Shown one piece after another: positions 49,001 through 52,000 of a stretch of DNA of 64,000 bases. The stretch is taken from assembly GCF_001677475.2 (NCBI RefSeq), contig NZ_CP012498.1. The stretch is one strand, 5' to 3'. Position 1 is the first letter of the stretch, and every line of letters begins with the position of its first letter. This stretch comes from Escherichia coli (GTDB taxonomy: Bacteria; Pseudomonadota; Gammaproteobacteria; Enterobacterales; Enterobacteriaceae). Position numbers: made by a program.

Positions 49001-52000
49001 TGAGTTTTCAGATAAAATAACTTCCCGGAAAGTCGGGGCAGTTTGTTACTTTGTGATATAATAGTAGATGGGATTTATTATAATAATTTTAAATATCAGA
49101 GATTATCATTCAAAAGATGGATATCATGAAGAAACACACAATTATGATGAAACTCATTTTAATAATAAAATAATCGTTCCATATGCTGTAACTGCTGATT
49201 TCCAAAAGGTAATATACGCTTATCATGGCGAGCATAGAGGGTTTAATAAATCATTCAATTTAATCCCATATGATACAGAAGTTAGTCAGATAAGACAGCG
49301 CATGTGTGTGTCTGAGTTATCAATATTGGCGAAAAAACATCATGTGACAACACCTTCTGTAAACATAGTAAGTCAAGGGGTTAAAAGATTTTTGACAAGA
49401 AAGAATATGGAAACAAATGGTGAGATAAAAAAATAATACACAAAAAGATTGGGCACTATTTTTATACAAATGGTTCTTTTGGATATGGCAGAATATCCAG
49501 GGGGAATAAAGATTCTTTTTCTGCTGACAAAATATGGGATGATATTATTTATTTGCTTGATTATGGGTTTTTAGAACAACAATTGGCTATTCATGATGCC
49601 GTTGGTAGAAAGATTATTGAACCAACAGATATTGAAACAAAAAAATATAATTGTCTGACATCTGTTAGAGAGGCATGGTTTGATGATAGAGAACAACGAG
49701 GAAGAATTGAATCGTCTCCATTCAGAAAAAAATGTTACCCCTACAAATGAAATGGGTATACTTCAAGAAAAAGTAAAGGGTATTGAGAGTCTCACACAGT
49801 ATCACAATCGTGGAATTGATATGTTTGTAAGAGATTTAAACAGAAAAAGAAATCCTTCTGCAGATTTATATTATGATGACCTTGATACTCATAATCTTGT
49901 TTTTGGTGCAGGTATATCTGGGACAACAGGCACATTATTACAAGCAGCATATGCTTTTGGCGGTATTGTTAATGGTGAGCTTTTAAAACAATATACATTA
50001 GCAATTATTATATATTTAATTGGCGGGGGAATGCATAGTTACCATGAAGTTCTATCAATAGCAAAGAAAGTCGGTCTGTATTATTCGCCTGGCTCATTTC
50101 ATTGGCTTCCATTGTCTTTTAAATTAAATAATGAATATGGGAAATGGAAGGAGAAATATTATGATATAGTTAAGATGGGGGCGACTCATTGGCGATTCAA
50201 TCAAGGGGTACCTCCGTCACATTTAAATAAGAATCTGCGTTCTTAATAATGAATAAATTTGGATACAGTGGCAGGTGTTTGTAGTATTTTCCCGTTAACA
50301 CGCTGGCAAGTATCCGGGGCCCGCAATACCATGCTCTATCGGGCGGGACGGCACCGGTGCTTCAACGATGTAGTCATATTTTGTACAGGCTTTTTTACCC
50401 GTTCTGTGCGGATCACTTTCAGGGCGCTGCTCACCGCCACACTCCGGGCAAGAGCTTTCTTCAGGTTCCAGACGGTTTATTTCGCGGGGGAGATGTGCCG
50501 GTAACGGGCGACGATGACGTGGCTGTCGCAGCTGGCGGGGAACCTGCGGATCATCCTCACGTCTTAACCTGGGTCTGAAGAAACGCATGTTTTAGTTTTG
50601 TATCATCCCATCCTGTAGGTAAGGGCCACTGCTTTATGCCAAGTTGAGCCGATCGATTAGCGTATCAGGATACAACGGAAGGGGAGATTGCAAGACTACG
50701 ACCAATTTGTCGATGGCTGAGTCCAACACCGTATTTAATTCTAAGAATTTCTTTAAGTTTTCTCATAGAAATTGGAACTGTTGGCATAGGTATCCTTTAC
50801 CGGAATGGCAAAAGATACAGATCAACACACCTGTGAAGTTCCAATAACATTGATGGAGATCACCGAATAACAAAACGAGTCAAAAGTGATCTCCATCAAT
50901 GTTATTGGGTGATCTCCTCCCATGAAAATACGCACTGGATCAGGCACTGTCTGCTTGTCAGGAAGATCACAGGTTGTGCCGAAACTTGATAGCCTGACGA
51001 GTTCAGTGCCCGATATCCGATAAATGTTAGTATAGCGGTGTCTCTGGATATTTTAGATCTCTTGGATAAGAGTTATTTTATTTTTCTCAAAGTAAACATA
51101 TAAAAAACATAAAGAATTGAATTCATATTTTTATATTATATGCTCTTTTGTTTTCCATTTCAATGAAATATGTAACTGCCGTATATTATAATTATTGTTC
51201 TATCTAAACGTGTGTTATTAGTGTGGGTGTGGTTATCTAAGATAACTGAACCTTCATGAAGCTCCTCGAGAATGTTTTATCTGTCGTAAACTGACTTTTA
51301 TCAAAATTAATCATCACAAGATTTTAACAAGAAATCAATCTCTTCTCTCAATCTCAGGTTATTAATTCGAAACACTGCAATTTCTAACTGAGATATATGG
51401 CTTTTGACCTGTTCCAGTTCTTTTATCTTTCTGTCATTTTCAGCATAAAGTTCAAGTAAATACTTTAGTTTATCTTCTCTCATTACTTTCTTACTCTGTC
51501 ACTGGAACTTTAATTGGTGCAAAATGTAATTTTATTAAAACGCTCTGACTGTATAATGTGTAAATATTATTTTTATCATGATTTTCTCAGTTCCAATAAA
51601 AATACAGAAGGAATCAAAATAAAGATTCCTTCTTTTTTAAGAACATCCAGCACAGGCAGGATTACAACAAAGTTCACAGCAGTAAAACGTGTTATTGATG
51701 CCTGCTGATTTATTTTTATTATAGTTTTTTACAACGGTACACTTTTTAGTGTCTGATGTACTTTCTTCTTTTGAAGAGTCAACCAATTCAGTTTTCTGGC
51801 TAAAAGAGGAAAAAGATAATACAGAAATAAAAATTGCCAGTATTAACTTTTTCATGCTCCCTCCTGTCATGTTATCCTCATGGATATTTGAAATTAGCTA
51901 AACGGTTTTTGCAATTTCTTTTTTTGTGAACTGTATCATATTTTATACTGAATTTTGCGCGCGAATTTAAATATTATTTTTACAGTATCATATATTTTAA

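Follow-up and report, generated by a model that had tools for sequence, protein, structure and literature searches.

The perfect inverted repeat found between the IS66 fragment and the estA region of the window (the whole 64,000-nucleotide stretch of Escherichia coli DNA analysed here) very probably consists of two oppositely oriented 23-bp sub-terminal units from the left end of an ISEc12-like element of the IS21 family. The feature is an ordinary one and is already catalogued, as these are the sub-terminal repeats of an IS21-family element that survives as an annotated pseudogene remnant. In the window, the repeat is a non-functional fossil of an old insertion boundary beside the estA segment.

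Geometry of the inverted repeat

A repeat search of the window returned two arms of 23 nt each with 100% complementarity (Table 1), in agreement with the perfect 23-bp inverted repeat described in the initial annotation (23/23 positions). Two figures given there had to be corrected, as the spacer measures 22 nt instead of 23 nt, and the repeat ends at 50908 instead of 50909, the latter position being base 1 of the next unit copy. The 9-mer GTGATCTCC, which had been reported to recur directly downstream, was found again at 50909-50917, and a longer direct match of 16 nt (81% identity) links 50886-50901 to 50909-50924, with a start-to-start distance of 23 bp. When the arm 23-mer was searched in the 64-kb window allowing up to three mismatches, two sites were detected, both corresponding to the arms themselves, and arm matches were obtained in 0 of 100 dinucleotide shuffles of the window sequence.

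The repeat segment corresponds to the untranslated 5′ left end of an insertion sequence and is non-coding, as had been claimed. No intrinsic-terminator-like site was found on either strand between 50600 and 51100, and no T-run follows the stem, consistent with the earlier judgement that a simple intrinsic terminator was unlikely. No sigma-70 promoter was detected over the arms, the sole consensus match being located inside istA.

Table 1. Positions of the features described in the text, in window coordinates.
Feature	Position	Strand	Details
ISEc12-like IS21-family remnant	50562-50934	-	373 bp; left end and first ~225 nt of istA
istA pseudogene remnant	50563-50787	-	start codon at 50787; 40 codons, then TGA
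Predicted RBS hairpin	50790-50818	-	GUAUCUUUUGCC-AUUCC-GGUAAAGGAUAC; pairs the istA RBS, 2 nt before the start codon
Inner arm, inverted unit copy	50841-50863	+	23 nt; reads CCAATAACATTGATGGAGATCAC on the + strand; starts 73 nt from the left tip
Spacer between the arms	50864-50885		22 nt
Outer arm, direct sub-terminal unit L2	50886-50908	-	23 nt; GTGATCTCCATCAATGTTATTGG on the + strand, CCAATAACATTGATGGAGATCAC on the - strand; 23-bp phase with L1
Terminal repeat L1 and element tip	50909-50934	-	TGCGTATTTTCATGGGAGGAGATCAC; first base 50934

The repeat belongs to the left end of a truncated IS21-family element

Comparison by blastn with an intact ISEc12 (2581 bp) showed that its positions 66-419 correspond to window 50915-50562 with 96.3% identity, and that its tip (positions 1-26) corresponds to window 50934-50909 with 92.3% identity. 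On the minus strand, the tip in the window opens with TGCGTATT, as in ISEc12 and its relatives, and the outer edge of the inverted repeat is placed 26 bp inward of it. The transposon or IS end put forward as a candidate in the initial annotation is supported by this position, and the mobile-element boundary expected between the IS66 fragment and estA does exist there; the initial annotation had missed that the element is of the IS21 type and does not belong to the adjacent IS66 fragment. The role of the additional 9-mer had also gone unrecognised; it is part of the terminal unit L1, which contains GGAGATCAC.

The istA open reading frame of the remnant begins with MPTVPISMRKLKEILRIKYGVGLSHRQIGRSL and is directed away from the repeat on the minus strand. 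It is closed by a stop after 40 codons, and the gene is interrupted at about 50561 by IS66-derived DNA, with about 75 codons up to the truncation point. At the DNA level, this 5′ part is 96% identical to istA of ISEc12. The corresponding interval of the RefSeq record (74156-74380) is annotated as a pseudogene, 'IS21 family transposase; internal stop; incomplete; missing C-terminus', and in the identical plasmid pCFSAN004179G the RefSeq annotation shows an IS21-family transposase pseudogene that abuts an IS66-family transposase pseudogene. A Pfam search with the 40-aa IstA fragment, which is very short, gave no match.

No further pieces of ISEc12, either istB or the right end, were found in the 64-kb window by blastn with the full 2581-bp element. 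A displacement of the rest of the element by the IS66 fragment was considered and rejected, as this search left no further matches in the window. As istA is truncated by the IS66 fragment and carries a stop codon, and istB and the right end are both missing, the element in the window is dead, and its repeat is consequently without function.

Recurrence of the left-end segment was followed by megablast with window 50590-51060, which matched 690 plasmid records. Nearly all of these matches end at about window position 50915 and overlap the 5′ end of an ISEc12-family istA, annotated in those records as 'istA: IS21-like element ISEc12 family transposase'. Among complete E. coli genomes, the segment was present in 1531 of 5426, at 4280 places (1958 E. 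coli records). The recurrence at element termini for which a BLASTN search had been suggested was thus found in both collections, in every case at the end of ISEc12 next to istA.

Organisation of the ends of intact ISEc12

The name ISEc12 is used here as in the RefSeq annotation, and the intact copy taken as reference is locus L001. Its IstA contains rve and Mu-transpos_C_2 domains together with a weak HTH match, and is homologous to the IstA of IS5376 (PDB 8B4H/8Q4D; E = 3e-13) along residues 107-391, the only region that aligned, no sequence alignment being obtained between the N-terminal DNA-binding regions of the two proteins. Its IstB matches IstB_IS21 with E = 2e-67.

Each of 11 independent insertions was 2581 bp long, started with TGCGTATT and ended with AATACGCA; the inserted element was either ISEc12 or a relative whose IstA is 91% identical (called the 91% relative below), which was obtained from a viral-contig scan. 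All 11 were flanked by target duplications of 5-7 bp, and the tip of the element is therefore fixed to the base. The left and right ends of ISEc12 align as terminal inverted repeats of the TG...CA form.

The left end of ISEc12 consists of a terminal unit (…GGAGATCAC) and direct units at 28, 51 and 74 nt (AATAAC-N-GATC), followed inward by a 22-nt spacer, an inverted unit at 119 nt, the RBS hairpin and the ATG at 193. In the ISEc12-type element, about 50-75 bp separate the inverted unit from the istA start codon downstream of it. At the right end, the terminal unit is followed inward by one further unit at 27 nt, and no copies were found in the interior of ISEc12. Two blocks separated by about 7 bp are conserved in the units, AATAACAT (A(A)TAACAT) and GATC, and the consensus of 13 units of the ISEc12 group, tnAaTAACATnnatgnaGATCnc, has the same two conserved blocks with about seven variable positions between them. 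The 23-bp spacing was found in the window, at both ends of ISEc12 and in ten relatives. In ISEc12 proper and in the 91% relative, the inverted repeat is matched at 20 of 23 positions and has an internal mismatch; therefore, perfect pairing is not the conserved property.

Conservation of the units among IS21 relatives

Ten IS21-family elements, with IstA proteins 46-100% identical to that of ISEc12 and about 26 kb of sequence in total, were compared. A plasmid search for relatives in the 60-95% range returned mostly near-identical copies. The tip TGC[AG]TATT was conserved in most relatives, down to about 46% IstA identity. In each of the ten elements, copies of its own unit were found at about 6, 29, 52 and 75 nt from the left tip; most elements also had copies at about 6 and 28 nt from the right tip. 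A single interior unit match was detected in the approximately 26 kb compared.

Seven of the ten elements have inverted unit copies on the stretch that separates the direct array from istA. None were present in ISSso4, the Pseudomonas element and the Pseudosulfitobacter element, and the family can thus do without the inverted unit. The distance from the left tip to the start of the first inverted copy is 119-120 nt in six elements, namely ISEc12, the 91% relative, an element from Aeromonas caviae (the A. caviae element), ISAs29, a Citrobacter element and ISVch3, and this position is kept down to 47% IstA identity. Judged by eye, the gap from the last direct to the first inverted copy is 22 nt in the first three of these elements and similar in ISAs29 and ISVch3. 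Six elements also have the tip-distal block in inverted orientation at their right ends, 89-95 nt from the tip, without interior matches; in ISBmu3 the inverted right-end block is at 85 nt, and the block of this element is palindromic.

The sequence of the unit varies between elements (…GGAGATC, …GCCGATC, …GTGAAC, …GTGATC and …CCGATC). The copies of any one element, whether left-direct, left-inverted or right-end, co-vary and share an element-specific sequence.

Origin of the two-unit left end

The window copy and ISEc12 share 96% nucleotide identity over 354 bp, the tip, the N-terminus of IstA, the inverted unit, the spacer and the RBS hairpin. They differ in that ISEc12 is intact, whereas the window copy is reduced to 373 bp and lacks a functional istA, an istB and a right end. 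ISEc12 has four direct units at its left end and the window copy two, a difference of exactly 46 bp, and the inverted unit is found at 119 nt from the left tip in the former and at 73 nt (119 minus 46) in the latter. Direct and inverted units agree at 20 of 23 positions in ISEc12, compared to 23 of 23 in the window.

The two parts of L2 in the window have different counterparts in the 91% relative, namely unit 2 for the first 10 nt (10/10 identical) and unit 4 for the last 13 nt (12 of 13 positions). This pattern fits the loss of two direct units through a 46-bp deletion, by recombination between units 2 and 4. No intact element with a two-unit left end was found in 72,556 plasmids and 5,426 E. 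coli genomes, which contained only the same remnant: the complete window tip was present in two records of the E. coli genome collection, and the full query was covered by two records of the plasmid collection.

Binding sites for IstA or an RNA hairpin

In the IS21-family element IS5376, each end is built of direct repeats at a 23-bp spacing (L1/L2 and R1/R2), and every repeat holds two conserved blocks that are contacted by HTH-1 and HTH-2 of one IstA subunit; integration requires two complete repeats, and IstA covers -10/-35 elements in both the left and the right ends, suggesting autoregulation (PMC10122671, PMC11208146). The identity of the element in the window, the position of its tip and the layout and conservation of its repeats were observed directly. 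Its units have the TG tip, the 23-bp phase and the two blocks of this layout, and binding by IstA would be expected for them by analogy. The recombinase-type binding site proposed in the initial annotation is in keeping with this, as the arms are copies of a sub-terminal unit whose counterpart in IS5376 is a documented IstA binding site (PMC10122671).

The strongest competing explanation, although an improbable one, is that the repeat has been selected mainly as an RNA hairpin, formed in the 5′ leader of istA or in read-in transcripts, with protein binding to the DNA being secondary. A 23-bp stem of this kind could be cleaved by RNase III, influence the stability of the transcript or hinder translation. 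The stem reaches -40.6 kcal/mol on the istA sense strand and the whole leader folds with z = -7.3, and this leader would hold both arms if the -10-like TATTTT of the tip were used, as is described for IS21 (PMC10122671). Moreover, a conserved hairpin clearly of the RNA type is predicted over the RBS just downstream of the repeat, and 9 of 11 elements have a predicted hairpin at the matching position, with another sequence. However, the unit that makes up the arms is also present in direct orientation and at the right end. A stem needs only two complementary arms, so it predicts neither these additional copies nor the co-variation of all of them, whereas both would be expected of a series of sites for a single sequence-specific protein. 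The inverted copy of the A. caviae element agrees with the distal direct unit 2 at 22 of 23 positions but with the adjacent unit, which has a 1-nt insertion, at only 12 of 23 in an ungapped comparison, so that it would pair best with the distal unit and not with the adjacent one. Four elements (ISAs29, the Citrobacter element, ISBmu3 and ISVch3) have inverted copies, two to three in number, that are phased at 21 bp whereas the direct copies follow the 23-bp phase, and no single clean stem is possible. In active ISEc12, the sense-strand stem is interrupted by an internal C.A mismatch.

A search of Rfam 15 at a permissive E-value returned only miRNA-precursor hairpins, with 19-27 bits against gathering scores of 70-100, so no family matched the repeat at its gathering score. 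These matches are generic, and the small RNA structure suggested earlier gained no independent support from them. The co-variation of the direct, inverted and right-end copies, together with the IS5376 structures, points to the units of ISEc12-type ends being IstA binding sites rather than an RNA hairpin. A role at the RNA level could coexist with protein binding, as any transcript crossing the repeat would fold into a very stable hairpin.

Relation to the estA segment

The ST-I enterotoxin gene is located about 700 bp beyond the repeat, on a segment of 1201 bp (50922-52122) that is present in some related plasmids and absent from others. The endpoint of this indel (50921/50922) falls inside the terminal unit, without any repeat or microhomology. 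Sister plasmids of the p1RM9088 type, which lack estA, are shown to be deletion derivatives, as the 1201 bp missing from them comprise the final 13 bp of the IS tip.

The vicinity of this segment, and of a tyrosine recombinase gene about 2 kb from the repeat (53024-53764), might suggest a site for a protein other than IstA, namely that recombinase, or the end of an estA-carrying mobile unit. This is very unlikely, as the repeat lies wholly within the ISEc12 homology, and the 1958 E. coli records and 690 plasmids show it without a link to estA or the recombinase. No second unit copy that could be the partner end of an estA unit was found elsewhere in the window, and the indel endpoint is outside the repeat. 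Both roles for the arms, as ends of an estA unit or as a tyrosine-recombinase site, were rejected on the ground that every occurrence of the repeat falls inside sequence homologous to ISEc12.

A chance palindrome, or a recent local duplication-inversion without biological meaning, is the least credible explanation of all and in effect refuted: the perfect 23/23 match is peculiar to the window variant, ISEc12 proper having 20/23, but the shuffles give zero expected chance matches and the inverted copy keeps its position across the relatives.

In the window, the repeat matters little in itself, being a by-product of the way in which IS21-family ends are built. Its value is that of a marker, as it gives the exact old insertion boundary, at 50934, beside the estA enterotoxin segment. 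A perfect sub-terminal inverted repeat beside a short HTH-type ORF should be compared with IS21 ends before a regulatory or RNA element is proposed.

Possible function of the inverted unit in active elements

The direct units at the two ends of an active element would assemble an IstA tetramer, which would synapse and cleave the ends. The inverted inner unit would most likely be a further IstA site with an accessory role in the architecture of the end complex, through bending or looping, and IstA bound there may also repress its own operon. The architectural role is supported by the presence of the inverted tip-distal block also at the right ends of six elements. None of these functions is possible in the window, which has no transposase, no IstB and no right end.

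With regard to inverted sub-terminal copies, the structural papers (PMC10122671, PMC11208146) and the text searches gave direct repeats only. We tentatively suggest, as a possibility less likely than not, that in the clade of ISEc12, ISAs29, ISVch3, ISBmu3 and their relatives the inverted inner units are conserved accessory transposase sites, placed at 119-120 nt on the left and at about 89-95 nt on the right. If so, these sites could be an operator for istAB autorepression, architectural sites for end looping, or both, and they would be missing from the IS21 transpososome models built on R1/R2 only. The conserved inverted inner unit may merit a footnote in IS21 transpososome modelling.

Comparison with IS5376 and phage Mu

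IS5376 and ISEc12 are alike in their 23-bp-phased direct repeats starting from a TG...CA tip, in their two-block units, in their homologous IstA (E = 3e-13) and IstB proteins, and in target duplications that include 5 bp; the duplication is 5 bp in IS5376 and 8 bp for ISPve1. The unit sequences of the two elements are unrelated, and the distance between blocks is about 7 bp in ISEc12 units and about 10 bp in those of IS5376. Furthermore, the ISEc12 clade has four direct units at the left end and at least one inverted inner copy, whereas none is described in the IS5376 papers.

The ends of phage Mu (L1-L3 and R1-R3 for MuA) resemble those of ISEc12, with its putative IstA sites, in having several transposase sites per end, only some of which are catalytic. 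The inner site R3 of phage Mu is inverted in orientation. Unlike ISEc12, phage Mu has an internal enhancer, host factors and a different spacing, and its sites have no sequence relation to the units of ISEc12. The two transposases, MuA and IstA, have in common a layout of tandem HTH, DDE and beta-barrel domains (PMC10122671).

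A probable inner inverted site at both ends

At the right ends of the intact ISEc12 (L001) and of the IS21-family relatives at loci L017, L025, L026, L028 and L030, the tip-distal block of the 23-bp sub-terminal unit occurs in an inverted copy, at a conserved distance of 89-95 nt from the right tip in all of them. In ISEc12 this block, TCACTGATCTCCTTCGG, overlaps the istB stop codon. The right-end copy of ISBmu3 (L029) was found at 85 nt, but its orientation is ambiguous because the block is palindromic. When the elements examined were searched with the inverted-block patterns, no interior matches were obtained. 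With the right-end block conserved and the interiors free of matches, the sequences make it seem that both the left and the right ends of the element carry an inner inverted site.

A predicted hairpin over the istA ribosome-binding site

The Shine-Dalgarno sequence of istA is paired within a predicted hairpin, and a hairpin at the same position was predicted in 9 of 11 IS21-family left ends (z about -2 to -5), their sequences being unrelated. That the position is kept despite this lack of relatedness suggests that damping of istA translation is a conserved feature.

Surroundings of the IS21 remnant

The segment carrying the enterotoxin gene estA is missing in plasmids that are otherwise 95-99% identical, such as p1RM9088 (L002). 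Since this segment is what makes the IS tip complete, the plasmids without estA appear to have arisen by deletion; neither a repeat nor microhomology was found at its junction. On the other side, the IS66-family fragment immediately adjoins the truncated istA, and the 97-aa ORF at 50295-50588 is a chimera whose initial codons derive from the IS21 remnant. Two AT-rich ORFs are flanked by this fragment on one side and by IS debris on the other, and the stretch at 47770-48974 is presumably an IS insertion.

Features of the window and of Salmonella plasmids
Feature	Position	Strand	Remarks
Stretch of ~1.2 kb	47770-48974		Not in L002
IS3-family-type ORFs	47848-48126, 48416-48958		Inside ~1.2-kb stretch
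AT-rich ORFs, 122 and 188 aa	49068-50246		RefSeq hypothetical proteins WP_050545185, WP_050545184
IS66-family transposase fragment	50263-50561	minus	RefSeq pseudogene; weak Pfam LZ_Tnp_IS66 match
Predicted 12-bp hairpin, GUAUCUUUUGCC / GGUAAAGGAUAC	50790-50818	minus	2 nt 5' of istA ATG
1201-bp segment	50922-52122		estA and final 13 bp of IS21-type tip
estA	51637-51855	minus	
Solo ISEc12-like remnant	e.g. NZ_CP022004.1 39474-39584		Salmonella ~59-kb plasmids, matches H135-H143

ISEc12 insertions and abutted ends

The target-site duplication of ISEc12 is not fixed in length, being 5, 6 or 7 bp depending on the insertion (flanks of L001 and L005-L018). Many plasmids of Salmonella enterica have a fixed solo remnant, which matches the outermost 116 nt of the left end of ISEc12 at 82% identity.

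The tip kept across relatives of ISEc12 includes a -10-like TATT(T/C). If the right and left tips of ISEc12 (L001) were abutted via a 3-bp junction, they would give TTCACG-N17-TATTTT, which is akin to the promoter that has been described at the junctions of tandem and circular IS21.
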